From assembly GCA_016783545.1 (NCBI GenBank), contig JADHWJ010000001.1, positions 10,369-74,368 of the forward strand: 64,000 nucleotides of DNA. Reading direction: 5' to 3'. This document shows, in pieces, positions 5,217-55,028 of the stretch. The position numbers and the translations under genes are program-made. The DNA is from Candidatus Aenigmatarchaeota archaeon (GTDB lineage Archaea > Aenigmatarchaeota > Aenigmatarchaeia > QMZP01). The first letter of the stretch is position 1. Each line of letters opens with the position of its first letter. The notes beneath the pieces were generated by a model. It was given only the letters and a program-made list of their open reading frames with translations, did not search any database and was not told the origin of the DNA.

Positions 5217-7856
5217 ATGTTAATTCAAATTCTTGATGTTGATTATGTAATGGTTGATGATAAGCCTGTTATAAGAATATTTGGAAAGAATGGAGCAGGG
5301 GAAGCAGTTTGCGGGTTTTATGAAGGGTTTCTACCATATTTTTATGTTGCTGGGGAAAATGCTGAAGAGGTATTGAAAGATGAAGACCTTAATTTTGAAA
5401 AAGTTAAAAGGAATATTATACTGAAGCACGTGCCTCAAGACGTTTTTAAAATTACACTAAAAGATCCATCAAAAACCCCTGAAATCAGGGATAGGTTAAG
5501 ATCAAAGGGTTTGAAACCATACGAGGCTGATATACTTTTTAAATATAGATTTATGTCTGATATGGGCATCAATGGAATGAACTGGATTGATATAACAGGA
5601 CCTGGTATACAGACAGAAAGTGTTTCAATCAACAAAATAATTCAAATAAAGAAAATGAAAGCTGTTGAGAAGACTGGGAATGCCGACCTTAAAACATTGG
5701 CATTCGACTTAGAATGTGTTTCAAATAGAGGGGGCATACCTGAGGCAAAGAGGGATCCTATTGTCATGATATCAATACTTTTTAGTCATGATTATAAAGG
5801 TACGGATAGGATGCTTCTCAGTACAAGGTCTGGAAAAGGTGTAACATATTTTGAAACCGAAAAGGCAATGTTGGAAACATTCATTAAGATTGTCAATGAT
5901 TTTGATGCTGATATTTTAACAGGCTATAACTGCAATAACTTTGATTTTCCTTATACACTAGAAAGAATGAGACAAAACGGTATAAGGGCTATTTTCGGAA
6001 GATGTAAACAAAAAACAGTATTTGCAAAAAGTATTGGTAATAGGCATAAAGTTTATATGACAGGAAGAATGATTGTTGATAGTTATACTATTGTAAAAAA
6101 GGATTTCTCGTTGGTGCGATATGATCTTGGAACTGTTGCAAAAAATCTGTTAAATGAAGAGAAAATTGATGTCAAGCATTCTGAAATCGAAACACTTTGG
6201 AGAGGAAATGATATTGAATTTGAAAGGCTTGCAAAATATGCCATGAGGGATTCTGTTCTTGCGATAAATCTTCTTAGAAAGCTTGATCTTACAAGTAAAT
6301 ATATAGCTCTTTCAAAGATATCCGGTACTCTATTACAGGACACACTTGATGGTGGAGAGACACTTAGGATTGAAAATTATCTTTTAAGAGAGTTTAATAA
6401 AAAAAAATATATATTTCCATGCAAACCAGAACCAGAAGAAATGGGCAGAAGAATGAGGGAAAGGGAAGAAAATTTCTTAAAAGGTGGATATGTTATAGAA
6501 CCAAAGAAAGGTCTGCATTCAAACGTGGTTGTATTAGACTTCAAATCAATGTATCCGTCCATAATCAATACATTTAACATATGTCCAACAACATTGACCA
6601 GAGAAAACGGCGATGATGTGATAAAATCACTGTCAGGTGCAATGTTCTGCAAAAAATCTGTTAAAAAGGGTATAGTTCCTGATGTTCTTGAAAATTTAAT
6701 GAAAAGCAGACAGGCTGTTAAAATGCAGATGAAAAAAGAAACTGATAAGGAAATCATACGGGTTCTAGATGCCCAGCAATGGGCATTGAAGATTATGGCA
6801 AACGCATTTTACGGATATCTTGGTTACCTAAGGGCAAAAGCATACTATATCGACATAGCGAATTCTGTTACATCTTATGGGAGAAATCTTATTCAAAATA
6901 CCTCAAAATCCATTAAAAAAATGGGCTACGAAATCATATACGGTGATACAGATTCTGTAATGGTTCAATCAAAAAAAATAGAACTTGATGATATAGAAAA
7001 GGAAATGGTGAAAATTGTTGATATTATAAATAAAGATCTTGAAGGCATACTTGAACTTGAGTTTGAAAAAATATTCAAAAGATTTTTACCGTTCACTAAA
7101 AAAAGATATGTTGCTTTATGTTTTGAAAGGGATGGTGATAAATGGAAAGAAAAGATGGAAATGAAAGGTGTGGAGACTGTCAGAAGGGACTGGTGCGAAC
7201 TTACATCAGAAACTATGAAGAGGATTGTTGAGATTCTTTTAAAAGAGAATGATGTTAAGGGGGCGGTTAACCACTTTAAAAATGTTATTGGGAAACTTAT
7301 GAAAGGTGAAATAGCTGTGCAAAAACTTGCTGTTACAAAATCCATGTCAAAGTCTCCTGAAAGATATGTAGGCATGCAACCGCACATAGAACTTGTGAAA
7401 AAAATACGAAAAAGAAGCCCTGAGGAAACACCTGGAATCGGCGATAGAATACCTTATGTTATTGTCAAGGGTCTTGGCCTTCTTTCAAAAAGAGCTGAAG
7501 ATCCTATGTATGTAATTGAACATGGCATACAGGTTGACTCTTCATATTATATTGAGAATCAACTTCTTCCACCATTGGAAAGGATATTCACCAGCCTAGG
7601 AATTTTCAAGTCAGAACTTATGGGCAATGGCAAACAGATGGGAATAATGGATGCTATTAAAAATCATGTAAAAGCTGCGAAAGAAACTGAAAAGGAAAAA
7701 GAAATAATAATTTCATCAAAGGAAATGAACGGGTTTGTATGTTCAAAATGCAATGACTTCCATAGAAGGGTTCCACTAGTGGGTGTATGTGAATGCGGCG
7801 GAGAGTTTTTGTTTTCCAGCCCCAAAGGCACTGCCACAACGATTGTTGCTGGGTAG
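5217..7856 (+). CDS. polB: family B DNA polymerase with an extra C-terminal C4 zinc-ribbon extension
   Basis: The N-terminus ILDVDYV..KPVIRIFGK is like archaeal PolB. Exo motifs FDLE and YNCNNFDFPY are present, as are pol motifs SMYPSII (motif A) and YGDTDS (motif C). After the conserved end near YIENQLLPPLERI there are about 90 extra residues containing CSKCNDFHRRVPLVGVCECGG. Confidence 0.9.
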   Translation: MLIQILDVDYVMVDDKPVIRIFGKNGAGEAVCGFYEGFLPYFYVAGENAEEVLKDEDLNFEKVKRNIILKHVPQDVFKITLKDPSKTPEIRDRLRSKGLKPYEADILFKYRFMSDMGINGMNWIDITGPGIQTESVSINKIIQIKKMKAVEKTGNADLKTLAFDLECVSNRGGIPEAKRDPIVMISILFSHDYKGTDRMLLSTRSGKGVTYFETEKAMLETFIKIVNDFDADILTGYNCNNFDFPYTLERMRQNGIRAIFGRCKQKTVFAKSIGNRHKVYMTGRMIVDSYTIVKKDFSLVRYDLGTVAKNLLNEEKIDVKHSEIETLWRGNDIEFERLAKYAMRDSVLAINLLRKLDLTSKYIALSKISGTLLQDTLDGGETLRIENYLLREFNKKKYIFPCKPEPEEMGRRMREREENFLKGGYVIEPKKGLHSNVVVLDFKSMYPSIINTFNICPTTLTRENGDDVIKSLSGAMFCKKSVKKGIVPDVLENLMKSRQAVKMQMKKETDKEIIRVLDAQQWALKIMANAFYGYLGYLRAKAYYIDIANSVTSYGRNLIQNTSKSIKKMGYEIIYGDTDSVMVQSKKIELDDIEKEMVKIVDIINKDLEGILELEFEKIFKRFLPFTKKRYVALCFERDGDKWKEKMEMKGVETVRRDWCELTSETMKRIVEILLKENDVKGAVNHFKNVIGKLMKGEIAVQKLAVTKSMSKSPERYVGMQPHIELVKKIRKRSPEETPGIGDRIPYVIVKGLGLLSKRAEDPMYVIEHGIQVDSSYYIENQLLPPLERIFTSLGIFKSELMGNGKQMGIMDAIKNHVKAAKETEKEKEIIISSKEMNGFVCSKCNDFHRRVPLVGVCECGGEFLFSSPKGTATTIVAG

Positions 7857-10086: not shown

Positions 10087-10310
10087 GTTAGTGTTTTCAA
10101 GATCAGTTTGATATATTATTCTACCCCATTCATCTCTTCCATCATCTGGTTTTTCACAGAGTCGTAATCTTACTGGCTTTAGGAATTCAAAATCATCTGA
10201 CAGATTTAAAAGTACTCCATCTCCACCTAAAATTACTCAAATTTCTCTAATTAGACATTTCATATTACCATGTATTAATTTCCTGTCCTGGTATGAATTT
10301 CATTAAAAAT

Positions 10311-10356
10311 CTCCAGTGGAAGTCAAGGGGTGTTGATTTCTCCACCGGAAGTAAAG
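10311..10356 (+). repeat. pair of ORB-like (origin recognition box) elements
   Basis: CTCCAGTGGAAGTCAAGGGG (10311-10330) and TCTCCACCGGAAGTAAAG (10339-10356) resemble the archaeal ORB consensus: a TCCAGTGGAAA core followed by a G-string. Confidence 0.5.
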
Positions 10357-10551
10357 ATGTTCATATGAATAGTAAACCGATACCATGCAAAAGTCTCCTA
10401 AGGAAACAGAGGGGTATGAAGTAAATATTACTGTATTTTTTGTAATATTACAATTGTTCTAAATTCAATACAAAATCGACAGTATAAGAAATTTTATGAA
10501 GAATATTAACTTATTTTCCACTAGCAATGAAGGGGTGTTAAGTTCATGTGA

Positions 10552-12350: not shown

Positions 12351-12739
12351 ATCTTCTCAAATTTTCCCTTTCTATAAACTAGCTCTAGTTCACCAGAACC
12401 CTTTGGATATTCATCTATAACTCCATTCATACAGAACATATCCCCACTTTCAATATCATATGGGTCTGTGTCAGTATCAATGAGGTCTTTTACCGTGCTA
12501 TTGAACATGACAAATTTTATTTTTCCTGTATCATCAACTATGTCTAGAAATATGTGTTTATTAGAAACTCTTTTCCCTTCAACAATGCCGCAGATAAAAA
12601 CTCCTTTTCCAACATCTCCAATTACTATTTCCTTTATTTTAATATTCTCAGAACCAATGTAACCAGAAATAAGAAAAAGTACCACCAGACCAACTGAAGA
12701 TGAAAATATTGCAAAATTTCTAAGGGTTTGCTCCCTCAT
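12347..12739 (-). CDS. membrane-anchored OB-fold (tRNA_anti-like) nucleic-acid-binding protein
   Basis: An N-terminal TM segment, then GKGVFICGIVEGKRVSNKHIFLDIVDDTGKIKFVMF, which is typical of an OB-fold barrel. It makes 4-nt overlaps with both neighbours, so it sits in the orc1 operon. Confidence 0.45.
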   Translation of the reverse strand: MREQTLRNFAIFSSSVGLVVLFLISGYIGSENIKIKEIVIGDVGKGVFICGIVEGKRVSNKHIFLDIVDDTGKIKFVMFNSTVKDLIDTDTDPYDIESGDMFCMNGVIDEYPKGSGELELVYRKGKFEKI

Positions 12740-13662
12740 ATAAACTCAACCCCCCTCTTACCCAAGTCCACTAAAACGCCACCGCCACCGCAGGAGATAA
12801 TACTAACACCATTATAATTTCTTGCCCATTTCTTTTCAGAAAGTATCCACATTATATCTGGTATTGGTTCTAAAAGAAAATAGTCTTCCTCTGATTTTAT
12901 CATTTGAGGCTCTGGCTTTAGGTGTCTCTTAACAAGATAATCCACTACTATATTGGGGTTCACATCCTTCTCTGGTTTATAGACAAGAATGTTCATCTCA
13001 TTATTCCCCCTTGATATTGTAATCCATGAAGGGTTTGTGAAGTTTGTGAATACATTTTTTTCCTCCTTACCTTCTTCTGTGAATATGAAGTCTGCCTTTA
13101 ATTCTTTGTTAAGTTTCTTCATAAAAGCCACTTTCACACCATCTATTTTTCTTAGCCTATTTTCTTTTGGAATATTTGGAAATATGATCTTATTTTCAAG
13201 TAATTTTTCCTCTCTTCTCATTCCTTTTACAGCAATCACATCATCAATATCCACTTTATTTTTACTAATAACTTCCACACTTCCTGTCATGTCTTCTAGA
13301 ATAAAACCAGACTCTCTCATTTCCTTTACCATTCCTATTACAGCTACAATGGAAAAGGAGTTTTTTATATTATTTATTGAAACAGGATTAACTTTCTCTA
13401 ATAATATTTTTTTCAATCCATTATACCTATTGTTATAATATTTGATGAAATTTTTTAGAAGAAGTTTTTCCTTCACTACAACTCTTTTTATTTTTACATT
13501 TACTTTAGATTCTTTTTCAATATTCCCAAGAATTGTCTGTTCCTGGTTATCTGCCTTTTTCAGATAGAATTCAATATTTTCTTCATTTATATTTTTTAGA
13601 ACTTCTGGTGATAACAATACACCTTTCTCCACAAAACGCATCACTATTTCTTTCTTTTCCAT
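12736..13662 (-). CDS. PolD small subunit (DP1)-like protein, short and apparently catalytically inactive
   Basis: The N-terminus RFVEKGVLLSPEVL matches the DP1 N-terminal domain. It has an OB-fold (SIVAVIGMVKEMRESGFILEDMTGSVEV). The C-terminus LVKRHLKPEP...PDIMWILSEKKWARNYNGVSIISCGGGGV aligns to the DP1 phosphodiesterase end (RRHLAP...PDIFHTGHVH...NSGTWQ), but the metal-binding His/Asp residues are replaced. Confidence 0.55.
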   Translation of the reverse strand: MEKKEIVMRFVEKGVLLSPEVLKNINEENIEFYLKKADNQEQTILGNIEKESKVNVKIKRVVVKEKLLLKNFIKYYNNRYNGLKKILLEKVNPVSINNIKNSFSIVAVIGMVKEMRESGFILEDMTGSVEVISKNKVDIDDVIAVKGMRREEKLLENKIIFPNIPKENRLRKIDGVKVAFMKKLNKELKADFIFTEEGKEEKNVFTNFTNPSWITISRGNNEMNILVYKPEKDVNPNIVVDYLVKRHLKPEPQMIKSEEDYFLLEPIPDIMWILSEKKWARNYNGVSIISCGGGGVLVDLGKRGVEFI

Positions 13663-13668
13663 TTTATT

Positions 13669-14928
13669 TTATACCATCCCCAATTTATTTTTCTGAGCAT
13701 CTAAAAAGAGATTGTCTGTTAAAAGATAGTTCTCTTTTAAAATCTCCCTAATCTTCTTTAGGATATTTTTTTCAAGGAGAACTTTGATCTCTTTTGACCT
13801 TCCATACCTACCCCTTGATATAATTTTCGTGTTTATTATACTGAGCATATCAAGTTCTCCTATAAGGTCTGATACCCTTCTCTGTGTTAAGACCTTAAGA
13901 CCCTTACTAACACATATTTTTTCATATAAGCTGAAAACATCACCAGTCTGTATGTTTTTGGGGTCTTTTTCAAGGAGCTTTAATATTGCGGCGAGAACTG
14001 CTTGTGATTGCCTTGGTTGGGTTTTTACAATCTCAACTGTTTTATCAGTATCTAATTTATTTTCTGCCTTGTCGAGATGCTCAATATTTATTTTACTATT
14101 TTTTTCTCGTTCAGCAATCTCCCCTGATATTCTTAAAAGATTCAGCGCTTTCCTAGCATCTCCATGTTCCTGTGCTGCGAGTGCGGCGCATTTTGCAATA
14201 ACACCTTCAGCTAAAACACTATCATCAAAGGCAAGCTTGGCCCTTTGGTTTAATATATCTTGTAGCTGGGCAGCGTTGTAGGGTGGAAATATTATTTCCT
14301 CTTCAGAAAGACTGGATTTTACTCTTGGATCCAGATTATCTGTGAATGTTGTATCATTAGATATTCCAATTAAGGAGAGTTTGGTTTCCTTAAGCTCTTC
14401 ATTTATTCTCGTAAATCTATAGAGGATATCATCTCCTATCTTGCTTACCAATGCGTCTATTTCATCTAATATTAAAACAACAACAGATTTCTTTGAGTCC
14501 AGTGTCTCATAAAAGATTTTAAAAACCTCATCTGTTGGTAGTCCTGTATAAGGGATCTTTTTTCCCATTATTCTTAGTATCTCAGCAATCATCCTATACT
14601 CTGTATCAGAAACCTTCTTCAGCTTGCAATTTATATAAATAACTTTTACATTATCTGATATTTTAGAAAGTTCTTTTGTAACATGTTTTGCAACACAGCT
14701 TTTACCAGTACCAACTGTGCCGAAAATGAATGTGTTGCTTACTCTCTGGCCTTTAATACTTGGCGCGAGTATCTTTGCAAGCTGATCTACCTGTTCTTCC
14801 CTATGTGGAATATCGTCTGGTATATACCTATCAGTTAGAAAGTCCCTGTCTTTGAATATTATAATTGATTCAGAAGCATATTTAGTAAATAAATCTTTTA
14901 ATGTTTGTTGTGCCATAAACTCTCCCAT
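13669..14928 (-). CDS. orc1: Orc1/Cdc6 replication initiator (AAA+ ATPase with winged helix)
   Basis: Walker A GTVGTGKS and Walker B ILDEID are present, followed by sensor motifs and a C-terminal winged-helix region. Confidence 0.9.
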   Translation of the reverse strand: MGEFMAQQTLKDLFTKYASESIIIFKDRDFLTDRYIPDDIPHREEQVDQLAKILAPSIKGQRVSNTFIFGTVGTGKSCVAKHVTKELSKISDNVKVIYINCKLKKVSDTEYRMIAEILRIMGKKIPYTGLPTDEVFKIFYETLDSKKSVVVLILDEIDALVSKIGDDILYRFTRINEELKETKLSLIGISNDTTFTDNLDPRVKSSLSEEEIIFPPYNAAQLQDILNQRAKLAFDDSVLAEGVIAKCAALAAQEHGDARKALNLLRISGEIAEREKNSKINIEHLDKAENKLDTDKTVEIVKTQPRQSQAVLAAILKLLEKDPKNIQTGDVFSLYEKICVSKGLKVLTQRRVSDLIGELDMLSIINTKIISRGRYGRSKEIKVLLEKNILKKIREILKENYLLTDNLFLDAQKNKLGMV

Positions 14929-15194
14929 CTTCCAGTGGAAATATTAACAATTTTATTTTAGATCTAAATTTTATAAGCTAGATTTCCGCTGGAAAAATAA
15001 AACACTGTAATAAATTATAATTTTGGAGTGGAAATGGTTTTTCCCTTTATTTTTACTATACCCACACCCACCATTTCCTATGGAGATATAACATAATAAA
15101 ATATAAAATATATTTTATAACAATGTTATATTATAAATAAAAATTTTCGATTTTTATTAAAAGTATTTTCCATGAGAAATCAAGGTCTCGGGGG
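14929..15194. other. candidate replication origin (oriC): ORB-like repeats flanking an AT-rich duplex-unwinding element
   Basis: TCCAGTGGAAA (14931-14941, abutting the orc1 start codon), TTTCCGCTGGAAAAA (14984-14998), TTGGAGTGGAAATGG (15023-15037), TTTCCTATGGAGA (15074-15086) and TTTTCCATGAGAAAT (15176-15190) surround a roughly 85% AT tract at 15087-15170. Confidence 0.6.
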
Positions 15195-15920
15195 TTATTC
15201 TATTTTATTTATCCTTTCAATTAATTCTTCTAGTTTCTGATCTTTGGTGATGACTAGAGGAATACCTTCTGCTTCAGCAATTCTTTTTGCGATTTCATCA
15301 ACTTCCCCTATACCATGAAGAACAACTAAGGCTGGTTTTAGATTAGTTAGTTTAATGGCAACCATTGGCCCTCTTCCTGTAGAAAGTTTTGTAAATATTA
15401 ACGCTCTCTGGGTTGTAGAACCGTATACATTTATCAGTTCTGTTGAAGAAAACTCTGTTATTGCCTTTAAAGAGTCTATTACACTATACCCATAAATCAC
15501 ACCACTACCATTAACAATGGGTTTTGCGTTTATTTTTTTACAAAAATCATTCACATCTATACCAGACGCAAATTCTCTCATATCGATTATAGCGTCTGAT
15601 AAAAGCGGCTGTTCGGTTTTCTTCGAAAATGATTTTAATATCTCTCCACCCACCTTTTTATCTATACTGAGCAAAGCCTCTATATATCTCTTTATTATTT
15701 TTATTCCAGGACTCTTTCTTCTACCAGATTCATAGTCAGATATAACACTTGATGTTATACCTAGCTCTTCAGCAAGTTCTTTCTGGGAGATTTTGAATAT
15801 ATTCCTCCATTTCTTTAAAACACTATTTAAATTATCTGAAAGAACAACCTCCCCTACAATATCCTTTATCAGTCTTTCCCTTCCCAATACATCGTCAGAT
15901 AGCTTAATCATGTTCGACAC
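15195..15920 (-). CDS. HTH (XRE-type) transcriptional regulator with a C-terminal uncharacterised domain (COG1395-like)
   Basis: ISQKELAEELGITSSVISDYESGRR is a classic XRE helix-turn-helix. The 241-aa architecture matches a conserved archaeal regulator family. Confidence 0.6.
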   Translation of the reverse strand: MSNMIKLSDDVLGRERLIKDIVGEVVLSDNLNSVLKKWRNIFKISQKELAEELGITSSVISDYESGRRKSPGIKIIKRYIEALLSIDKKVGGEILKSFSKKTEQPLLSDAIIDMREFASGIDVNDFCKKINAKPIVNGSGVIYGYSVIDSLKAITEFSSTELINVYGSTTQRALIFTKLSTGRGPMVAIKLTNLKPALVVLHGIGEVDEIAKRIAEAEGIPLVITKDQKLEELIERINKIE

Positions 15921-15959: not shown

Positions 15960-18900
15960 TTAGAGCCGCTTTTTATAGATACCTACTGAAAGGATTAGCA
16001 AAAGAATGATTGAAAATTCTTCTAAACCGGAAAACCCTGGTGGGAACCCAATATCTATTCTTACTTCACTTTCATCTTCAAATACCTCACCAGGAGGGAA
16101 CTCAAAAACATCAGATACAGCTATCATCTTCAATTTATAATCTTGGCCAGACTCCCTTGAAGGTATTTCAATGAAAAATCTTTTCCTTTCCCATGGCTGA
16201 AGCACAATATCTTCTATTACCCGTCCTTCTGATTCAACAAACTTTGCCAGGTCATAATCTTCCAAACTTAGGTCAATTGTTTGCGTTTCTCCGAGAAGCT
16301 CCCAAATAGTGACACCGAGTAGATATGTTTCTCCATTTCTGATTACAATATAATTTGAGTCAAATGCAGCCAATGGATGTGTTGTTATTGAATATTCTAT
16401 ATTATTATAATTCTCTGCCCTATCCATTAATTCCACATTTAATTTGACAAGACCTGTTTCATATAATATTTCTATTGGGCAGTTAACACTTCCTCCCCAA
16501 CTATCTCCAGAACCACAATCGTTCCAATCACCACCAGTAGTCCATTTCAAAACACTAACACCAGAGACAGAATCACTTGCATCAATATCCATCTTAACAT
16601 TACCAACATTTCCTGGTATTATTATCCAACCAACCACAGCCTTTATATTATCTATGAATGTTGCTGTATATTCTGGTGGAAGAACGTCTATTGTTGTTCC
16701 CATAAGCCTATTGATGCAATCAGGATCTGCCACATCATCTTCATCACAAACATCTTCAAGTAGTCCATCACTTTCAGAATAAAGACTGAACATAAAGGAG
16801 TAGCTGTCTGTATCACTACCCACCTCATCGTCTGAATCAAAAGTTAAAGATCCTTCAGTGCATTTATCTGGTGTGCATGTAAATTCACCTAAATTAAACC
16901 ACCTAGTCCAAGCAGTCTCTGGACCAGGTCTATTAGGGTTGGGGTTATACCTGTATTTAACAAAAAAGGAGTCCACTGGTGTTCCAGAACCGAATTGTAT
17001 TGGAAATGTAATTTTATTTATCCAATCTGGAAGTCTTGTGAAAAATGATGTCGGAGGGGTAATTACGATTCTTTTTTCCACTGAAACTAGAGGGCCGTCG
17101 TTTCCAACATTATCAAAGGGTTTGCATGTGAATATATATGTTCCTTCATCACCAGCCCAATTGCAAGAGAAATCACCGTTTCCATCCACATCAGCTGTCA
17201 ATATATATGTGAGGTCACCAGACCCATAATTACACATACTATATATATTCAATGGGGTGCCTCCCTCTTCTTTCAGACCAATCTCAAATTCCTTTATCCC
17301 AGATTCATCATCAGTTCCAGTTAGTGGTATAGTAAATGATGACGTAACAGGGGAGTCATCGCCCATTACACATGTTGGCGGGCCCAGGTCAGCGCCCACA
17401 GACTTTTCTTCTTCACCGGTATTTCCAGCCCGGTCAGTTCCTATTAGTTCGAATTTATATAGATAGTTGTTTTGAAGATTATCAAAAACTATTATTTCTC
17501 CAAGGCCAAATAATCCAGGAGTACCAAGTGTTGGTGTGCAGGGGTCTGTTGCTGGAGAACAGCTACCAGATTCTATTGAAATAGGAGTAATACCAAACCC
17601 AGAACCGCCCAGGTCAGAACCAGACCAACTCATGGTGAACGTATCAGCAACCCATGTAATCAGTCCCTCAACATAAAGAGCAGGGGTCACGATTAGAGAG
17701 AAGCTGGGTTCTTGGTTGTCAACCTTTACCTCATTGGTATTGGAAACAGTGACAACACCAAAGTCAGTGAAGATAATGTCAGCCTCAAATTTATAACATT
17801 TACCCGATTCCAGGCCTGTTACTCCAATAATCTCATCAAAAAGTGTTAGTAAGCCACCAACTTGGGTCCTTTCACTATAAGTTCCACACACACCATTAGC
17901 TAATGTCGCTGTCCTTTGGAAAATCTTGAAACCAGTTGAATCTTGATCACTCTTGGTTACAGTAATATCAAGAGTCGTATCCTGGGTAAATCCACCATCA
18001 TAAACTATTGACCCGGTTGCAGTGCCTATTGTTATTGATTTTGTCACCTCCTTTGAATTGTCTGCATTGTCCCATGTGATGGCTTTTATAATATAGCTTG
18101 ACTCTACTATAGTAACACCACAAACAGTCTCTGGAGGCTTTACCTCAACAACACCACTTTCTGGTAAATCACACCCATTATCATTATAATCAACAGTGCA
18201 TTCATCGGATTCATAAATACAGAATCTAGTTTTGTCAATGCCAGAAAGCCCGTCAGACGGTGTTATTTTTACATTAACAAAATCACTTCGAGTACATAGG
18301 TCATCATCACAACCAGTGCCTAAACAACACTCTGCTGCAATAGATGGGTCTGTTATATCTATCTTAACGCTTGTAAGAACAGAATTAGATTCACTTCCAC
18401 TAACATCATTTGCACCAAAATTAAGAAGATCTTCTTGTTCAGAAAGAGTGTTTGTATAATCATATTCATAGGTGCCTTTCATTGTCTTGGTATACCCAAG
18501 AGTTGGATCTGTTAGTTCAACACCATCAACCAGTGGCTCGCAGTCCCCTGAAGTTGCAATGCACATCTTTGTTGCTGCTATGTCATAAGCAGAGCTTACT
18601 GTGACTGTGATGTCCTGATCCTCATTAATCCACACATCATCGCTTCCATAATCCACTTCTAACACAACCCCTGCTGTTGAGACAGGGTCTGATGGGTTTC
18701 CTGCAACATCAATTGCCCTATACACCTTTTTCTTCCCTTCTGGAACAGTCTGGGTGTCATCACTGCAAGATGGATCTCCTTGATCTGGGGCTTCTTCATC
18801 ATTTATTAGGGGACAATTTATTGTTCCTTTCACCCCATCACATGTTCCAGCGCAGTTGCCGGCATCACTCACAGTACAATCGCTTAAAACATCTCCCTGG

Positions 18901-20810
18901 CACCATTTTATTTTCCTCATTCCAGATCCCCCAGCTTCATCGTGCGCTTCTATTTCAAATTCAACACCTGGGAGCACACTCTCTGGTGGTGTTATCACTG
19001 GTGCAATCTTATCTATCTGCACTATGACTGTGGCTGTCTCAAAGTTGTCAAAGCCGTCAGCCGCAGCAGAACAAATAATTACTTTGCTGCTAAGGTCATC
19101 TACTTTACCATCACTTTCATAGTATCCGGGGCTTGGGTATGGTTCTGAATAAGTAACTTTTTCAACATCTGTCCCGCTTAAGAAATCAGCCTTAGAGGGG
19201 CAGCTGACTTCCTTAAAACCAACATCTCTACAACCAACACCATTATCCGGGTCATCACATTTCACTTTAAAGTCTCTGTCAAGGTTGAACCATGGGGTTG
19301 TATCACCATCTTTATAGTTCTCTTTGGTCCCGTCACCATCCATGTCTATCTGGAGCTTGACATTTGGCTTTTCCCTTTCCAGTATTGTAAATTGCCCTTC
19401 AGCTTTGGGAGAACACTCGTGCCAGTAACTTCCCGGAGTATCTTCTGGTATCCTGTTGCAAGATTTCACTTCCCATTCATAATTACCGTATCCAAGCTCG
19501 TTTACATCGTATTTATGTTTGGCTTCATCGAAAACAGCTTCAGGGTCTGCTGGGTTTGGTGTAAAAATTCCTGGAACTATCACTTCCTTTATGTTTTTCA
19601 GGTAAAAATAATACGTGTCAACATAACTGCTATCACTAGCGCGCCACTGGAACTCAACATCCAGATTTCCAGTATCGTCTGTCACTTCCAGCTCGTTTGT
19701 TGGTGCTATTAAAGTTGGTAATTCAGGTACATAGTATTTGGTGATTTTTATCTTGAATGCCGGAGGACCGTAAGAGTCTAGGCCAAGTGAAATACCACCT
19801 GGGGTTTGACTATGCCCATAACTCCATGAAAAATAAAAATTAAAGTCAGTCCCGTCAGACGGGCTTGAAACGTATGGAAGTATTATAAAATATGAATCAA
19901 AATTATACTTCCCAAGGTCATTGGTGAGCCATAAGAAAGTTTTCCATGAAAACCAATCATCAAAATTGACTTGGCTTGGTTCATACTGGAGCCTGTATAT
20001 ATTATTTTCATTATGTGCAAAAGGAGCTGGGTCTGCCCTGAAAACAGTTGGATCTGCTTTCTTTGTGTTTATATTACTACCCCAGTCACTAAAAACTCCA
20101 TCATTGCAATAGTCCCTTCCCTTACACCAGCTTTTTGCTTGGTATTCAAAACCAACTATAGAACCAAGGATTTTATCTGTTGATATTTTAATCCTACATA
20201 ATCTACCTTCATGAATATAATCATGGTTTGCTTTGTTTACCCATTCACATACTTCACAATCATCAGTATCGCATACACAATATTTTTTACATCCATAATA
20301 AACGTCATCTCCACCATCACCTGTAACAGTTCCAGAATTAGCATTGCTTGGAACAAACTCAACCTCAACAGGAGTTGGAAGGTCAACCCATCCAGCATTT
20401 GCAATACCAGAGCTCAGAAGAAAGAAAAATAAAAAAAATATGGGAACATACCCTGCATTGTGATTTATAGCTCCACCCCTTCTGAGTTTTTTAGTAGCTA
20501 AGAAAATAACAAGAATAGCAATCAAAATAATCAATCCCCATAGAATGAATTCATTCCCTTCTACTGGTTCTTCAATTGTTCTGTTGGGTGCTCCAGATAC
20601 CTCTATCCTATTACCATTTTCATCAGCTATGAAATAGCGTTGGTTTTGCTCTATCTCTATACTATCTATTGGGACTTCACTAGAATTAGGAACACATGAA
20701 TCAAGTTCTTCCATATAGACGGTTCCAGTAGGGCAACTCAGCTCTTCAGCCTGAACAAAGACCATGAGCAAAAAAACCGTAAGCAAAAACGAAACTGTTA
20801 TAAATTTCAT
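15960..20810 (-). CDS. giant (1616 aa) Cys/Asp/Gly/Thr-rich cell-surface protein with a C-terminal TM anchor
   Basis: N-terminal signal peptide MKFITVSFLLTVFLLMVFVQA, then a second hydrophobic segment. Long beta-rich repeats follow, with many Cys pairs. The C-terminus FSIILLLILSVGIYKKRL is a TM anchor plus a basic tail. Confidence 0.6.
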   Translation of the reverse strand: MKFITVSFLLTVFLLMVFVQAEELSCPTGTVYMEELDSCVPNSSEVPIDSIEIEQNQRYFIADENGNRIEVSGAPNRTIEEPVEGNEFILWGLIILIAILVIFLATKKLRRGGAINHNAGYVPIFFLFFFLLSSGIANAGWVDLPTPVEVEFVPSNANSGTVTGDGGDDVYYGCKKYCVCDTDDCEVCEWVNKANHDYIHEGRLCRIKISTDKILGSIVGFEYQAKSWCKGRDYCNDGVFSDWGSNINTKKADPTVFRADPAPFAHNENNIYRLQYEPSQVNFDDWFSWKTFLWLTNDLGKYNFDSYFIILPYVSSPSDGTDFNFYFSWSYGHSQTPGGISLGLDSYGPPAFKIKITKYYVPELPTLIAPTNELEVTDDTGNLDVEFQWRASDSSYVDTYYFYLKNIKEVIVPGIFTPNPADPEAVFDEAKHKYDVNELGYGNYEWEVKSCNRIPEDTPGSYWHECSPKAEGQFTILEREKPNVKLQIDMDGDGTKENYKDGDTTPWFNLDRDFKVKCDDPDNGVGCRDVGFKEVSCPSKADFLSGTDVEKVTYSEPYPSPGYYESDGKVDDLSSKVIICSAAADGFDNFETATVIVQIDKIAPVITPPESVLPGVEFEIEAHDEAGGSGMRKIKWCQGDVLSDCTVSDAGNCAGTCDGVKGTINCPLINDEEAPDQGDPSCSDDTQTVPEGKKKVYRAIDVAGNPSDPVSTAGVVLEVDYGSDDVWINEDQDITVTVSSAYDIAATKMCIATSGDCEPLVDGVELTDPTLGYTKTMKGTYEYDYTNTLSEQEDLLNFGANDVSGSESNSVLTSVKIDITDPSIAAECCLGTGCDDDLCTRSDFVNVKITPSDGLSGIDKTRFCIYESDECTVDYNDNGCDLPESGVVEVKPPETVCGVTIVESSYIIKAITWDNADNSKEVTKSITIGTATGSIVYDGGFTQDTTLDITVTKSDQDSTGFKIFQRTATLANGVCGTYSERTQVGGLLTLFDEIIGVTGLESGKCYKFEADIIFTDFGVVTVSNTNEVKVDNQEPSFSLIVTPALYVEGLITWVADTFTMSWSGSDLGGSGFGITPISIESGSCSPATDPCTPTLGTPGLFGLGEIIVFDNLQNNYLYKFELIGTDRAGNTGEEEKSVGADLGPPTCVMGDDSPVTSSFTIPLTGTDDESGIKEFEIGLKEEGGTPLNIYSMCNYGSGDLTYILTADVDGNGDFSCNWAGDEGTYIFTCKPFDNVGNDGPLVSVEKRIVITPPTSFFTRLPDWINKITFPIQFGSGTPVDSFFVKYRYNPNPNRPGPETAWTRWFNLGEFTCTPDKCTEGSLTFDSDDEVGSDTDSYSFMFSLYSESDGLLEDVCDEDDVADPDCINRLMGTTIDVLPPEYTATFIDNIKAVVGWIIIPGNVGNVKMDIDASDSVSGVSVLKWTTGGDWNDCGSGDSWGGSVNCPIEILYETGLVKLNVELMDRAENYNNIEYSITTHPLAAFDSNYIVIRNGETYLLGVTIWELLGETQTIDLSLEDYDLAKFVESEGRVIEDIVLQPWERKRFFIEIPSRESGQDYKLKMIAVSDVFEFPPGEVFEDESEVRIDIGFPPGFSGLEEFSIILLLILSVGIYKKRL

Positions 20811-21579: not shown

Positions 21580-23229
21580 ATGCAATATTGGGGAGTTTTA
21601 TTAGTCTTTTCTGCATTTTTTATAGCGCTTTCTATTCCAATATATGCCTTTGAGACCTGTTCTGTCAATGTTAAAAGCAAGTATAATCTTCAGCCGCTTG
21701 AAGGAATGCAAGCTGCTATACACGAAGAAAAACTCTTGGGGGCCAACCCATACTGTACCATAATAAATACTGATATGAGTGGCGATGCATCAATTTCCGT
21801 GCCTTGGTCTGTTTCAGGTGATTGCGATTCTGATAAGTGCACAAAATATGAAGCCGTGGCTTATTATCATGGCGAATATGAGACAAAGTCCTTTTCTTCT
21901 GCAGGGAAACTTTATTTCAAAGTGCCTGCTGGAAATATAGATGTTGAAGTCAGGCTTGTTGATAATGCTGGGAATATTGTAACCAGTGGAATAACATCGG
22001 TTTATTTAGGATATGGTGATGGCACTGTTAAGAACACACTCGATGCACAACCACCAACTCAAGGGATTCTTAATACAGTTGTTTATATACCACAGCCAAT
22101 GGGAACTCCGGTAGGTATACACCCAAACCCACAATTTCATTGCCAGGCAGGCATTGGGGACGGCTGTTTTAGGGATATATACACAATGGCAGAGTTGGAT
22201 GATGGGAGTTTCACAAACTGGGAAAAGCTAAGCAGGGTCAATTGGCAAACAATAAACGCTAAGCTATATAAGGAGATAGAGGTAGCCCAAGGAGGCACTG
22301 TTAGTTGCACTGGTGGAACAGGTGAGATAGAAATAGATCTGAAGAGCATAAGAGGGAACAACATAGCTTCTGAAGGTTATAGTTTTAGAATGGTTTGTAA
22401 GTATAAGAGCGGTTTTTTTGGGCAAACTCAGACAGAAGAGCTCAGCCCGGTTTCAGGTACCAGCAGATTTACTGGATTAAAAACAAATTCGGATTTTGAA
22501 TACAGCTATGAAGTTATGTATGGTGCCACTTCAAAGCAGAGAAACAGCGACCTGTCAACAGTGATTGGTAAGGGCAATGCTGGGAGTTTTCCAACAGGCC
22601 AAGACAAAATGAGTCATGAGTATATAGTGAAACCTGATTGTAAGATGTATTGCATTGAAAAGGATCAGGGTACAATTGAGGGCTTGGTTGCCTATATCAT
22701 TGATCCTTTAAGCGAATTAGGTCTTATTGATAAAATTTTAGGCTCGATCATCAATGCCATTACATTTGGACTGACACCAGGTCCGCAGCCAATTAATATA
22801 ATAACTGATATTCTCGGAAACATTGCACATATTGTTGATGCTGTCACATTTGGAAATTTTGGATCAAAGAATTGCAAGCCATTGGAAGACCTTACAGAGG
22901 CTCAAACCGTTGATTATCTAACTACTATCAGGGATACTGTGCTAAAGGATGATGCTGCGCTGACATATTGTTCAATAGAGATTGATGTTAAAGAGGAAAG
23001 TTATGATAAGGAAAATAATGAAGGGAAATATAAGATAGAAATGAACTCAGAGCCAAGGACAGACGACCTGATGAGGGCGATATTCTATTGCCATTTATTG
23101 GGATGCTTTGATTCTGGTGATAGTGAAAGTGGGAGAAAAAATGATGTAGTGCCCGGTAAATGCACACCACCAACTTGTGAATGTCCCCCAGATTCACCAA
23201 ATGAATGTGCGATAAGATGTTGCACTTAA
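21580..23229 (+). CDS. secreted Cys-rich protein (Sec signal peptide)
   Basis: Signal peptide MQYWGVLLVFSAFFIALSIPIYA. The tail is Cys-rich: GKCTPPTCECPPDSPNECAIRCCT. Confidence 0.5.
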   Translation: MQYWGVLLVFSAFFIALSIPIYAFETCSVNVKSKYNLQPLEGMQAAIHEEKLLGANPYCTIINTDMSGDASISVPWSVSGDCDSDKCTKYEAVAYYHGEYETKSFSSAGKLYFKVPAGNIDVEVRLVDNAGNIVTSGITSVYLGYGDGTVKNTLDAQPPTQGILNTVVYIPQPMGTPVGIHPNPQFHCQAGIGDGCFRDIYTMAELDDGSFTNWEKLSRVNWQTINAKLYKEIEVAQGGTVSCTGGTGEIEIDLKSIRGNNIASEGYSFRMVCKYKSGFFGQTQTEELSPVSGTSRFTGLKTNSDFEYSYEVMYGATSKQRNSDLSTVIGKGNAGSFPTGQDKMSHEYIVKPDCKMYCIEKDQGTIEGLVAYIIDPLSELGLIDKILGSIINAITFGLTPGPQPINIITDILGNIAHIVDAVTFGNFGSKNCKPLEDLTEAQTVDYLTTIRDTVLKDDAALTYCSIEIDVKEESYDKENNEGKYKIEMNSEPRTDDLMRAIFYCHLLGCFDSGDSESGRKNDVVPGKCTPPTCECPPDSPNECAIRCCT

Positions 23230-23231
23230 CT

Positions 23232-26200
23232 ATGAACAAAAAAATTAAAGCCCAAGTGGAAATATTGACAATAGTTTTAGTAGCTGCAGGAATAATTGTA
23301 GCTGTAGTGTATGGTGGGACAATGGAAGAGCCGAAAGGAAAATTTGTAGAATCAGCTATAATATCCCTCCAAAATACAATGTGTACAGACCCTGCTAATG
23401 CATATTCATTCTCTGGTGGTGTTAGAACCACATGTACATGTTATCTTGCTTTTCAGCCATACGCAACTTCGTTTTCCACTGCCTATCCTGTTGATGTTGA
23501 ATATCTGGGCCTTGTATGGGAGGGCGCTGAAGGATTCTGTTATGGGCTTCAAATAATACCAGAAGGTGCTGAGCCTGGAATAATGCCACCCGGTGGCGGA
23601 GTAACTCCCCCATCAGGTGAATGCCCTGGTTATGATTGTTCCCCTCATGATGCAAGCAGAGTTAGTAAAAAATTCACTGTTAGCTATAACATCCATCCTA
23701 ATAAAGACAAGAATAATATATTTGGTAATTTGATGGCTAAAGTGAGAATATTGGATGAAAATAGCCCTCCTAATGAAATAGAAATCCTCGATGATGCTGA
23801 TGTTAGTATTGACATACCCAGTAGCTGCAATGCTGTTGGTTCATTAGACTGCAAAGTGGAAGTTTATGTTGATAATCCAGATCCATCGCATATGAAAGAT
23901 GGATATGCTTGGATGTTTTATTTGGGCCAGGCAGCTAAAATTGCTAAAACAGATTGTGATAGTAGCGGAGCATGTGATGGAATAGACTGGGCCGATGGCG
24001 ACGATGTTGATATAGTGGGATTTGAATTTCCAACTTCTACGTTGCCGGTGTTCCCCTTTGGCATGCAGCCAGGAACATTTGAGAGAGCTTTTGATGGTGT
24101 TGAAATCAGAGATTTATGCCTTGAATGGCCTGTTACTGACGGTGAAAGGCTGGAACCAATAACCATTGGTCCCTATTCTGATCCAGTATGTAATTGTAAA
24201 AATCCAGGAGATGGTCCTTATGAGGGATTCCAGAAAGAAGAGAGTGGTAGTGCTCAATGCGTTGAAATTGTTGACACCGGATATGTTAGATTTGAAGACT
24301 ATAACGATGTGGAAACATACGTGTTTTCAAGGGGGGAGAACATGTTCTGCACTGCCCGTATAGACACTTTTAATGATATTGAACCTGTTAATCCAAAAAT
24401 AGAAATTTTAATGGTTAAGGAAGGAGATATTGACAACCCTTTGACAAAAAGCGGCGAAGATGGTAATCCAACCTGTAATTTTAATGAGGACTGTGTAATA
24501 GGATATGATACCCTTGGGATAACAGATTTCAGTTCAGGTCCTGTTAACATTGAGTGTTATGTGAAATACAGCTTTGATGCATGGAATTCCAGGGAATATA
24601 AGAGCATGCCTGAAATGATGTTCCTTAATGGTCCAACCGCTGTTCATCATGTCCCACTGCCCAGTGCGCAGGTTTTCCCATGCCCTGATAAAACCTTAGC
24701 ACAACCTTATCCTAATCCAGAAATACCCGAACTTGGAGAGGAATATTGTGTGTGTGTGGAGAGTGTAACAGTTCCTGATGGAACGTTAGATTTAGATGGT
24801 ACATACGGGCCTGATATGAAGTGTCATATATTACCAATACTCCCAAGTACTATTTTTTATGACGAAGATGGGAATAAAAGGGGAAAAGTCCCGAAAGGCG
24901 ATGTAAGTGTTATAGTGGAGGGAGAAAAATACAAAGACAGTGATGATGTGATTGCCAGGGGATATTTTTATGGCAGGTACGTTTCAGATGATACTGTTAC
25001 ACCACCTGTTGACTGTGAAACAACAATCAATATTAAAAGAATACGTACCGACGCTTCCGGAGCTGAGCAAACAGAGGATTTTGAAGGTACTGATAACTGC
25101 TGCGATGCTAATGAAATATGCGAATTAACTTTCCTTGACGCTGAAACAGAACCATTTGACAAATTTGAGGCCTACATGGCATACAAATTCAAGGTTTGGG
25201 ACGGTGTTAATGAGATTCCAATAACAGGGTACATAGAAGGCGACACTTTAGCCATGGGAATAGGTGACACGTCAGAGGCAGAAGTTGCTCCCTGTCCGGA
25301 TGGATTTGAAACATCTATATATACAGATGCTGTTGGTATTGGTTATAACATATGCATTTGTGGTGATCAGAACGAAGGCTTTACAAGACCAAAGATAGGT
25401 GACGATGATGGTGTTTGCGTCAAGTCAGATATTGAAAATATGAGGTATGGAGATCTTTACACAGAAGAAATCATAGGATTTATGCCTGCTGGTGGTAACT
25501 ATTACACATCTGAAATTCAACCAAAATGTATAGCAGATATTGAAATTGAGAACGGGGAGATAGACAGTGATACTATTGTAGAAGTGAAAGGATTTTTGGA
25601 AGCGGTTGAATATGGGGATGATACTGTAGTGCAGGATTATACTCAAATGTGTGATATTTCACAAGCTGAATGCACTGTTAGTCTTTCTCCACAATCTAAA
25701 TTTCTGTATACAAAATGCAAGTTTAATGAGGATATTTTAACTTGGAGTGGAAAAGCAGACATAACAATTAGAAAACCTATTCAATTTCAACAAATCCAAC
25801 CAGAAGAAAGTATAATGATTATACCGGTTGGTTATATTAAGGGAACTATAAAAGGATGTAGAGATGTTAAAGGAGTTAGAACATGCGCAGAATTGGAAGA
25901 TGTTGAAATAAAATTAATTAGCAGCCAGGTAAATCCACATAAGGTGTGTAATGAATTCCCATGTAATGAAATAGCTGGCGTAACCGATGCAAACGGAAAC
26001 TTTGATATCGGGCCGATATATTCCCAATTTGATGATACTGATAAATTCCTTTTCAGGTTGATGGTTAACTCAGGTGGCATGGAATATTTCTGGGACGGTA
26101 ACCAAATAATGAATGATACTATCTGGGAGACGTTTAATATCCCTTTGAATAGTTATAAAGATTTTGGTGTTTTGGAAATTGAAATGCCTCCGTGCAAAAA

Positions 26201-26558
26201 ACTGCAGGAGATCGGAGAAGGTAAGGATAAAATGGAAGATTTAATTGATGAATTCAATAGTTGCTTGAATAACAATGCATGTAAAATGTTCTGCCAGCCT
26301 AGTTTAAACATAAAAGACGAATATAAAATGAATCTTGGGTCATTAACAACTGTTGTTGATTCAGTCCTGGACGCTCCAATAGTATTATATCAGAGACTTT
26401 TGCTGGGAGTGGTTGACAAGGTAAGATTGATAACTTTCAATAAAGTACCGGTTGTTTCAGCACTCAAAAGTTATATTAATTTATTCACACCCTATCTTAT
26501 TTGGCATGGGGATTTTGAGCTTATTGAAAGAAATAAGAGTTGGTGGCAGATATGGTAG
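23232..26558 (+). CDS. large (about 1100 aa) surface protein with a pilin-like class III signal peptide
   Basis: MNKKIKA|QVEILTIVLVAAGIIVAVV has a basic n-region, then K-A, then Q and E, then a 20-aa hydrophobic stretch, matching archaeal prepilin-peptidase substrates. The body is Cys/Asp/Gly-rich. Confidence 0.5.
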   Translation: MNKKIKAQVEILTIVLVAAGIIVAVVYGGTMEEPKGKFVESAIISLQNTMCTDPANAYSFSGGVRTTCTCYLAFQPYATSFSTAYPVDVEYLGLVWEGAEGFCYGLQIIPEGAEPGIMPPGGGVTPPSGECPGYDCSPHDASRVSKKFTVSYNIHPNKDKNNIFGNLMAKVRILDENSPPNEIEILDDADVSIDIPSSCNAVGSLDCKVEVYVDNPDPSHMKDGYAWMFYLGQAAKIAKTDCDSSGACDGIDWADGDDVDIVGFEFPTSTLPVFPFGMQPGTFERAFDGVEIRDLCLEWPVTDGERLEPITIGPYSDPVCNCKNPGDGPYEGFQKEESGSAQCVEIVDTGYVRFEDYNDVETYVFSRGENMFCTARIDTFNDIEPVNPKIEILMVKEGDIDNPLTKSGEDGNPTCNFNEDCVIGYDTLGITDFSSGPVNIECYVKYSFDAWNSREYKSMPEMMFLNGPTAVHHVPLPSAQVFPCPDKTLAQPYPNPEIPELGEEYCVCVESVTVPDGTLDLDGTYGPDMKCHILPILPSTIFYDEDGNKRGKVPKGDVSVIVEGEKYKDSDDVIARGYFYGRYVSDDTVTPPVDCETTINIKRIRTDASGAEQTEDFEGTDNCCDANEICELTFLDAETEPFDKFEAYMAYKFKVWDGVNEIPITGYIEGDTLAMGIGDTSEAEVAPCPDGFETSIYTDAVGIGYNICICGDQNEGFTRPKIGDDDGVCVKSDIENMRYGDLYTEEIIGFMPAGGNYYTSEIQPKCIADIEIENGEIDSDTIVEVKGFLEAVEYGDDTVVQDYTQMCDISQAECTVSLSPQSKFLYTKCKFNEDILTWSGKADITIRKPIQFQQIQPEESIMIIPVGYIKGTIKGCRDVKGVRTCAELEDVEIKLISSQVNPHKVCNEFPCNEIAGVTDANGNFDIGPIYSQFDDTDKFLFRLMVNSGGMEYFWDGNQIMNDTIWETFNIPLNSYKDFGVLEIEMPPCKKLQEIGEGKDKMEDLIDEFNSCLNNNACKMFCQPSLNIKDEYKMNLGSLTTVVDSVLDAPIVLYQRLLLGVVDKVRLITFNKVPVVSALKSYINLFTPYLIWHGDFELIERNKSWWQIW

Positions 26559-54623: not shown

Positions 54624-55028
54624 ATGGGTCATAGAAGCAGCATACCTCTATATTGGAGATTACAGAAATCAAAGTATAATTTAGTTGGAACAAAATGCAA
54701 AACATGTGGAAAGCTCTATTTTCCACCAAGACAGCTCTGTTCAGAATGTAGAAGAAAGGGTGAGATAGAAGACTTTAGTTTCTCTGGTAAAGGAGAGATA
54801 ATTTCATTTACAGTTATAAGAGCAGCCCCAGAAGGATTTGAAAAATACACACCTTATGCAATTGCATTAATAAAACTGGAAGAAGGTGAAGTTATCTCAG
54901 GTCAGATAGTTGGTGATGTTACTAAAGTCGAAGAAGGAAAAAAAGTGAAGTCTGTTTTCAGAAGAATGCATGAAGACGGAAAAGATGGCGTCATCTTTTA
55001 TGGTGTCAAATTTCAATTAGTTGGTTAG
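54624..55028 (+). CDS. DUF35 OB-fold/zinc-ribbon scaffold protein of the thiolase-HMGCS complex
   Basis: CKTCGKLYFPPRQLCSECRR is a rubredoxin-like zinc ribbon, followed by an OB-fold. Its start abuts the thiolase stop. Confidence 0.8.
   Translation: MGHRSSIPLYWRLQKSKYNLVGTKCKTCGKLYFPPRQLCSECRRKGEIEDFSFSGKGEIISFTVIRAAPEGFEKYTPYAIALIKLEEGEVISGQIVGDVTKVEEGKKVKSVFRRMHEDGKDGVIFYGVKFQLVG

Follow-up and report, generated by a model that had tools for sequence, protein, structure and literature searches.

A family B DNA polymerase with a DP2-type zinc ribbon and its probable DP1-like partner in an Aenigmatarchaeota genome

Introduction

What is a cluster of four cysteines doing at the C-terminus of an archaeal family B DNA polymerase (PolB), and is a DP1-like gene on the same contig the source of its partner? 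The question is raised by a 64,000-nucleotide stretch of DNA from Candidatus Aenigmatarchaeota archaeon (contig JADHWJ010000001.1, positions 10,369 to 74,368), referred to here as the window, in which the original prediction, made from the letters alone, saw the hint of a two-subunit PolB. The answer is that the window PolB is very probably the catalytic half of a replicative polymerase with two subunits, its zinc ribbon, of the type called Zn-III in DP2, the large subunit of PolD, docking into an inactive DP1-like B-subunit. The homology and conservation of the tail, the fold of the partner, its lack of histidines at the aligned catalytic positions and the gene linkage come from the present analysis; the interaction and the absence of DP2 from the phylum come from the literature. 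The two-subunit idea was already described in 2020 and experimentally backed in 2025, and as the window matches the one-motif form of that literature, the hypothesis is correct but already known.

Group B6 PolBs of Aenigmarchaeota were reported by Kazlauskas et al. (2020, Nucleic Acids Research; PMC7544198) to have C-terminal cysteine motifs, and in the subgroup B6-aenigma1 there is one motif, closest to the zinc motif of the DP2 C-terminal domain (CTD). According to the same paper most Aenigmarchaeota are without DP2 and their DP1 is inactive, and the proposal was that PolB replaced DP2. In a 2025 paper in Nature Ecology and Evolution (PMC12680538) the Aenigmatarchaeota PolB has a degenerate and shorter DP2CTD, Aenigmatarchaeota DP1 interacts with PolB-DP2CTD and not with canonical PolBs (AlphaFold3 and yeast two-hybrid), and the two-motif B6-aenigma2 sequences are put down to Baldrarchaeia contamination.

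The polymerase and its C-terminal extension

5217..7856, + strand: PolB gene, 879 amino acids (aa) plus stop; Delta-like group B6 of Aenigmarchaeota
7623..7664, + strand: motif GNGKQMGIMDAIKN, resembling a PCNA-interacting protein (PIP) box, aa 803-816, internal and not C-terminal
7665..7730, + strand: variable linker, aa 817-838
7731..7838, + strand: zinc ribbon homologous to DP2 Zn-III, aa 839-874

The polymerase is 100% identical to ISS36_00095, which is annotated as hypothetical and encoded on a 119,898-bp contig of a Candidatus Aenigmarchaeota metagenome-assembled genome (MAG) at NCBI; its Pfam domains are DNA_pol_B_exo1 (aa 100-307) and DNA_pol_B (aa 374-793). A motif check found Exo I (FDLE) and Exo III (YAMRD) both kept, as are polymerase motifs A (DFKSMYPS), B (KIMANAFYG) and C (YGDTDS), and Exo II, taken from the translation, is NCNNFD; with exonuclease and polymerase motifs intact, PolB reads as an active, self-proofreading enzyme. 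In PDB the human Pol delta catalytic subunit ranks first (E 2e-117) with Thermococcales PolB marginally behind (E 3e-115), and it is by Pfam domains and best PDB match that the core is Delta-like as in B6-aenigma1. The best 120 homologues have 53-67% identity and lengths of 863-1393 aa, and the named ones are all from Aenigmarchaeota; most named loci are likewise from Aenigmarchaeota or Aenigmatarchaeota, the hosts of B6-aenigma1. One homologue, P0042 (1393 aa), has intein domains.

Past the Pfam core PolB continues for 86 residues (aa 794-879, nucleotides 7596-7853); nucleotide 7590, where the original prediction had the tail begin, corresponds to aa 792. Thermococcales PolB structures align to query residues 809-811 at most, which is ~9 residues short of their own C-termini, and so the ~65 residues beyond are a true extension and the extra tail that had been claimed is real. 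It reads ...GNGKQMGIMDAIKN-HVKAAKETEKEKEIIISSKEMN-GFVCSKCNDFHRRVPLVGVCECGGEFLFSSPKGTATTIVAG up to the stop, with aa 839-871 being GFVCSKCNDFHRRVPLVGVCECGGEFLFSSPKG. The codons of C842 (7740-7742), C845 (7749-7751), C858 (7788-7790) and C860 (7794-7796) give the spacing CxxC-x12-CxC, in agreement with the single C4 cluster that had been noted, and the H-R-R-V-P loop of the ribbon is at 7761-7775.

A 19-residue span holds 4 of the 13 cysteines of PolB, with a binomial probability of 4.5e-5 per 19-residue window that becomes ~0.04 once all PolB windows are allowed for; the clustering alone is only suggestive, and it is conservation that decides. Every one of the best 120 homologues, aligned with MAFFT, has C842, C845 and C858 (120/120), and all but one have C860 (119/120); G839, P853, L854, G856, G861, G862, F866 and G871 are nearly invariant. 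In P0039, the sole sequence missing C860, only the first half of the ribbon is there (…GSCSSPQGQSETVIT), and either a real deletion or faulty assembly could be the cause. Relatives were where the original prediction proposed to look for the same tail, and all of the best 120 have it. Its cysteines and their spacing being conserved, the tail is by its sequence a conserved folded module, and the low-complexity sequence with unconserved cysteine spacing that had been named as fatal to the idea is not what these homologues carry.

Just before the ribbon and its linker there is a conserved segment, G-x-G-K-Q-x-G-[IL] (aa 803-816), in which G803, G805 and Q807 are found in 120/120 homologues. Its KQMG (aa 806-809) is aligned with RQVG close to the C-terminus of Thermococcus PolB, where RQVG opens the PCNA-binding PIP box. 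The consensus of such boxes is Qxx[ILM]xx[FWY][FWYL], and in the window PolB we take A-I to stand where the usual aromatic pair would be; the sequence Q807-M-G-I810-M-D-A-I, without that pair and with 65 residues beyond it, is not the canonical C-terminal PIP box of PolB3. PolB would appear to have retained its ancestral C-terminus, to which linker and ribbon were then added. Within the linker, the columns of aa 819-826 are mostly gaps and unconserved, and the AlphaFold2 (AF2) confidence score (pLDDT) is 56-66.

Relationship of the ribbon to DP2

A profile (A1) built from 51 tails was searched against all PDB sequences. It matches DP2 of T. kodakarensis (6knb_B, residues 1128-1165, E 8.7e-7) and of P. 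abyssi (6hms_B and 6t8h_B, residues 1120-1157, E 2.8e-5), the nearest match other than DP2 being at E 0.033, and the match runs past the cysteines (eFrCvKCntkyrRpPLtGkCpkCGGkivltvskG). The cluster has the DP2-like character of the B6-aenigma1 motif, since its cysteines are conserved in 119-120/120 and PDB profile matches below E 0.03 are to DP2 Zn-III only. A hidden Markov model (HMM) of the tail, used as an independent check, finds DP2 open reading frames (ORFs) at loci of two unrelated archaea, L025 (Pacearchaeota, E 7e-9; the ORF is DP2 by Pfam) and L026 (Methanosarcinales, E 3e-7), to which BLASTP aligns the window PolB with 43-46% identity over 37-44 residues. The Pfam model zf-DPOE reaches the tail at E 0.012-0.018 (15.6-16.2 bits, below the cut-off of 21). 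On the profile and BLASTP comparisons the tail is homologous to the Zn-III module of DP2.

What Zn-III does in PolD is known from cryo-EM (Raia 2019; PMC6355029): it docks at the interface of the OB and phosphoesterase (PDE) domains of DP1, its loop is KxRRxP with R1131 and R1132 reaching into an acidic groove, and a 20-residue Zn-III peptide has nanomolar affinity for DP1. The ribbon loop of the window PolB is F-H-R-R-V-P-L. Among 119 homologues loop position 2 is K or R in 92, position 6 (the second arginine) is R in 75, position 8 is P in 115 and position 9 is L in 118.

The counterpart of Zn-III in eukaryotic CTDs is Zn-2/CysB (PMC6355029; PMC7544198), and with this the resemblance to the eukaryotic CysA/CysB CTD that had been pointed out is half sustained. 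The CysB/Zn-2 half follows from the DP2 Zn-III homology; CysA is lacking, as PolB has only four cysteines past residue 660, amounting to one module, and the helical bundle is lacking as well. In the AF2 tail model aa 835-874 form a beta ribbon (pLDDT 85-87) and there is a single low-confidence helix at aa 810-824, and no helical bundle is seen around the metal module. The alpha1'-alpha3' helices and C-terminal PIP box that are visible after Zn-III in the DP2 of L025 and L026 are missing from the PolB tail. With these gone, and only 19 residues left after the last cysteine, the tail is the CysB/Zn-2 equivalent alone, without CysA and without a helical bundle. In one divergent relative, L024, the tail has the DP2 spacing CxxC-x12-CxxC.

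The DP1-like small subunit

12736..13662, - strand: DP1-like small subunit, 308 aa; N-terminal helical domain, OB fold, shortened inactive phosphoesterase remnant

The DP1-like protein has no Pfam match, neither Metallophos nor DNA_pol_E_B, in which the true DP1 of L025 differs from it, and its best single-sequence match in PDB is at E 0.5; because such searches found nothing, profiles and structure prediction were needed. NCBIfam models of the PolD small subunit do reach aa 5-181 at E 1.4e-19, under their curated cut-off. Word-based homology searching returned only 10 relatives (311-351 aa), and a profile search of 1.84 billion representatives gave 1,068 matches at E<=1e-3, with 189 clusters at E<=1e-30; among the 150 matches listed the relatives are all short (154-378 aa).

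The family profile matches T. kodakarensis DP1 (E 2e-13) in two blocks, one for the OB fold (profile 59-184 against DP1 128-275) and one for the C-terminal part of the PDE domain (profile 247-306 against DP1 432-496). DP1 residues 275-432 have shrunk from ~156 to ~62 in the DP1-like family, leaving ~95 residues without counterpart, and there is no His at the positions that this comparison aligns to GHvH. Two acidic motifs, EDxTG and PD, placed in the OB fold and where it joins the PDE domain, are nearly invariant and common to the DP1-like family and DP1. The AF2 model, made with 112 sequences, has pLDDT 95.5 and a predicted template modelling score (pTM) of 0.84, and each of its 36 Foldseek matches at E<=1e-3 is DP1 or a B-subunit of Pol epsilon, delta, zeta or alpha, the best being P. 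abyssi DP1 (E 2.5e-13, TMq 0.66). The protein has the fold of the B-subunit family (DP1-type N-terminal domain, OB, shortened phosphoesterase) and lacks the active nuclease site of functional DP1.

Profile and model together mark the DP1-like protein as a homologue of DP1 and the B-subunits that is conserved and folds, but has a shortened PDE domain and is catalytically dead. The gene at 12.7 kb had been called an inactivated DP1-like gene, and with a DP1/B-subunit fold and no catalytic residues at the aligned positions it deserves the name. That the ORF is a pseudogene was considered and rejected, being incompatible with the size of the family (189 clusters at E<=1e-30), its many invariant residues, the pLDDT of 95.5 and the conserved synteny.

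Gene order and linkage

13669..14928, - strand: Orc1/Cdc6 gene, directly upstream of the DP1-like gene; Pfam Cdc6_C, Cdc6_lid and AAA
12347..12739, - strand: OB-fold protein, 130 aa; Pfam tRNA_anti-codon OB fold (E 1.8e-9), with an N-terminal hydrophobic, membrane-anchor-like segment

In the window PolB (+) is followed by a ~3-kb gap with small ORFs and TspO and then by a run of - strand genes, namely TctA, OB-fold, DP1-like and cdc6. A contig search and a scan of GTDB species genomes, the latter using an 11-sequence DP1-like alignment, placed the DP1-like gene in the window and 24 further loci. In 20 places, which amount to 18 distinct protein pairs, the DP1-like gene has a PolB with the tail at a distance of 0.2-4.9 kb, so that the two are linked in 20/21 loci with adequate flank. 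Four other contigs stop too early, and the lone exception, L006, is a second DP1-like paralogue on a complete chromosome, with no tail-bearing PolB found within 10 kb. The gene directly 5' of the DP1-like gene is cdc6 wherever examined, namely in the window, L001-L004, L023, L024 and L006, where cdc6 is truncated. In L023 and L024, divergent MAGs with PolBs that share 48% and 42% identity with that of the window, cdc6, DP1-like and PolB are on one strand (L023 8806-14345, L024 8502-13878), L023 having an inserted HAD hydrolase gene. At the true PolD loci, L025 and L026, DP2 comes after DP1 on one strand.

PolB is argued to be a chromosomal gene, as the neighbours are housekeeping genes (NAC, tRNA synthetase, cdc6) and the synteny is phylum-wide, and a scan of IMG/VR with the tail alignment (one peptide pattern) found no viral contig with a relative, leaving a mobile-element location unsupported.

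The complete 1.05-Mb Aenigmatarchaeota chromosome CP070801.1 has two DP1-like paralogues, L006 and L009, that are only 42% identical. L009 has a convergent PolB within ~0.2 kb and a 402-aa ORF at the usual place of cdc6. The order in L006 is the truncated cdc6 (163 aa, lid and winged helix only), DP1-like, OB and TctA.

The OB-fold gene overlaps the stop of the DP1-like gene by 4 nucleotides, and the TctA transporter gene comes next. The OB plus TctA pair is found after the DP1-like paralogue in L006 also and is not present in L001-L004, and it is uncertain whether the OB-fold protein belongs to the polymerase system. In L001-L004 a 224-228-aa calcineurin-like phosphoesterase (Metallophos) is divergent from cdc6 (L001 1045-1719, L002 7871-8557); in the window the corresponding strand beside cdc6 has no ORF of at least 100 aa, and a helix-turn-helix gene (15195-15920) adjoins cdc6.

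A two-subunit polymerase and its alternatives

The idea of a two-subunit PolB is supported by the DP2 Zn-III homology, the 20/21 linkage and the published yeast two-hybrid results (PMC12680538). Foldseek gives weak support, placing P. abyssi DP2 first for the tail model (37 columns, 40% identity, root mean square deviation 2.7 A) and, in fourth place, the CTD of human Pol epsilon (5vbn_B, E 0.17). No DP2 was found in the window, either by Pfam on nine of the largest ORFs, where PolC_DP2 models readily detect the DP2 of L025, or by the tail HMM, which matched only PolB among all ORFs. The last ~40 residues of PolB would be a DP2 Zn-III ribbon moved onto a proofreading-competent family-B core, and PolB would supply synthesis and proofreading. 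On the model of PolD and of the eukaryotic Pol alpha and epsilon, the ribbon, flexibly tethered and with its basic H-R-R-V-P loop, would dock in the acidic groove between the OB and phosphoesterase parts of the DP1-like protein. The DP1-like protein would be a structural B-subunit after loss of its nuclease chemistry, and its DP1-type N-terminal domain probably links to the replisome, for instance to GINS/CMG; the T. kodakarensis DP1 N-terminal domain (DP1N) binds Gins51C (PMC9023282). The internal PIP-like motif would bind PCNA.

Several observations weigh against such a polymerase. The Foldseek matches of the tail model are all non-significant (best E 0.056). The RR pair of the loop is complete in just 14/119 homologues. 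The PolB tail is without the helical bundle that contacts DP1 in PolD and in eukaryotes, and the DP1-like protein is without about half of the PDE domain that is touched by those helices, so that the interface of the two must be smaller than in the known complexes. The absence of DP2 was judged over 64 kb of the genome only. Finally, the proteins used in the published yeast two-hybrid work were from Aenigmatarchaeota genomes other than this MAG (PMC12680538).

How such a polymerase arose allows a tentative suggestion, possible though hardly to be called likely, that it is a minimal two-subunit PolB produced by co-reduction and that the origin-proximal order cdc6, DP1-like, PolB is the positional fossil of an in-place replacement of DP2. 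The ancestral unit would have been cdc6, DP1, DP2, and the co-reduced interface would consist of the Zn-III ribbon on the PolB side and the OB fold plus half of the PDE domain on the DP1-like side. L024 would be an intermediate, since it has the three genes on one strand and a tail with CxxC-x12-CxxC.

Of the readings that dispense with docking, one would have the ribbon be chiefly a DNA-binding or processivity element with which PolB grips nascent duplex, and it is improbable. The loop is certainly basic, with K or R at position 2 in 92/119 and R at position 6 in 75/119, but the ribbon hangs on a variable, low-confidence linker of ~20 residues past the PIP-like motif, better suited to a tether than to a clamp, and the linkage to the DP1-like gene and the published yeast two-hybrid result favor subunit binding, keeping in mind that the two roles are compatible.

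It is very improbable that the tail recruits another partner, such as the primase subunit PriL or some other replisome protein, with the DP1-like protein acting independently, perhaps with Cdc6 at the origin. The DP2 CTD of Heimdallarchaeia does bind primase as well in yeast two-hybrid, which recalls an observation in T. kodakarensis (PMC12680538), the DP1-like gene overlaps or abuts cdc6 and not PolB in most loci, and the DP1-like paralogue of L006 has no PolB nearby; yet the part of the DP2 CTD that has been retained is exactly the DP1-docking Zn-III, and DP1 binds this type of PolB in yeast two-hybrid (PMC12680538).

The notion of a lineage-specific generic zinc ribbon, DP2-like by convergence, beside a DP1-like ORF that is a decaying remnant, can draw on the wide recurrence of small C4 ribbons, on non-significant matches that rank below DP2 (eL43 and adenylate-kinase lids by profile, sirtuins and adenylate kinases by Foldseek) and on the missing Pfam match of the DP1-like protein, but it is effectively refuted by the pattern F-x-C-x-K-C-N...RRxPLxGxC..CGG..[LI].[FL][ST].S.G held in common with DP2 (E 8.7e-7), by the DP2 spacing retained in L024, and by the same family size, invariance, model confidence and synteny that rule out a pseudogene.

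Relation to known polymerases

The reading of the window PolB as the catalytic subunit of a two-subunit polymerase puts it among systems already in print. With B6-aenigma1 it has in common the phylum, the Delta-like core, the single C4 motif and the co-occurring inactivated DP1, and it is another member with no difference of kind. Term searches of the main texts of PMC7544198 and PMC12680538 did not find gene neighborhood, truncation or a PIP motif in this context. What the window may add, in a small way, is thus the synteny of cdc6, DP1-like and PolB, the ~95 residues that the PDE domain is short of, and a CTD that is Zn-III only and comes after an internal PIP-like motif.

PolD of P. abyssi and T. 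kodakarensis (6hms, 6t8h, 6knb) has the same zinc module, with up to 46% identity and the RRxPL loop, and the N-terminal domain, OB fold and C-terminal PDE part of its DP1 recur in the window DP1-like protein. It differs in that the DP2 core is two-barrel and not family B, alpha1'-alpha3' are present, the second knuckle is CxxC whereas that of the window is CxC, DP1 has nuclease residues where there are none here, and the PIP box is at the extreme C-terminus instead of before the ribbon.

The plan of eukaryotic Pol alpha, delta, epsilon and zeta is also the same, in that a metal module at the C-terminus of the family-B subunit tethers it to a DP1 homologue that has been inactivated; the PolB core is nearest to Pol delta, and the DP1-like model matches the B-subunits of Pol epsilon, delta and alpha. 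In contrast to the eukaryotic CTD with its CysA, CysB and helical bundle, the window tail of ~85 residues, of which ~40 are folded, has Zn-2/CysB only, and the eukaryotic B-subunit chains matched have 410-573 aa compared with the 308 aa and shortened PDE domain of the DP1-like protein.

PolB3-DP2CTD of Baldrarchaeia is likewise a fusion of PolB and DP2 CTD, with DP2 absent, DP1 kept and an interaction in yeast two-hybrid (PMC12680538). By that paper's description the Baldrarchaeia CTD is full-length and, in both sequence and structure, like that of DP2 and eukaryotes, whereas the CTD of Aenigmatarchaeota is shorter and has another predicted fold (PMC12680538).

Candidate origin repeats and other features

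An exact TTCCAGTGGAAA at 14930-14941 abuts the start of cdc6, with variants at 14983-14995 and 15023-15034 (region 14927-15035), and a second cluster of sequences like TTCCAGTGGAAA is at 10310-10350 and 10515-10545 (region 10310-10545), followed by GGGGTGTT. These two intergenic spots have 9 of the 18 window matches to TTCCAGTGGAAA (<=2 mismatches), the count of 18 for the whole window comparing with 9.7 +/- 3.2 expected. The repeats resemble archaeal origin recognition boxes, and they are candidate replication origin elements flanking the block of TctA, OB, DP1-like and cdc6.

Elsewhere in the window an 861-aa ORF resembling FAD-binding oxidoreductases (55025-57610, - strand) has an intein inside it (Pfam Intein_splicing, aa 259-776), and four ORFs of 979-1616 aa (15960-20810, 23205-26558, 43303-46614 and 61058-63997) have no Pfam match at E<=1e-4.

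Significance

Eukaryotic replicative polymerases are chimeras: to a family-B core is joined a C-terminal domain of the PolD type, and this domain is what binds the inactivated homologue of DP1. Aenigmarchaeota have the same design in a prokaryote, and a step in the evolution of the eukaryotic replisome can so be studied in a simple system, a point that has been in print since 2020 with experimental support in 2025. The window is a clean and well-assembled example, with PolB, DP1-like gene, cdc6 and candidate origin repeats on one contig, and it suggests that the contact between subunits may need no more than ~40 residues of Zn-III.

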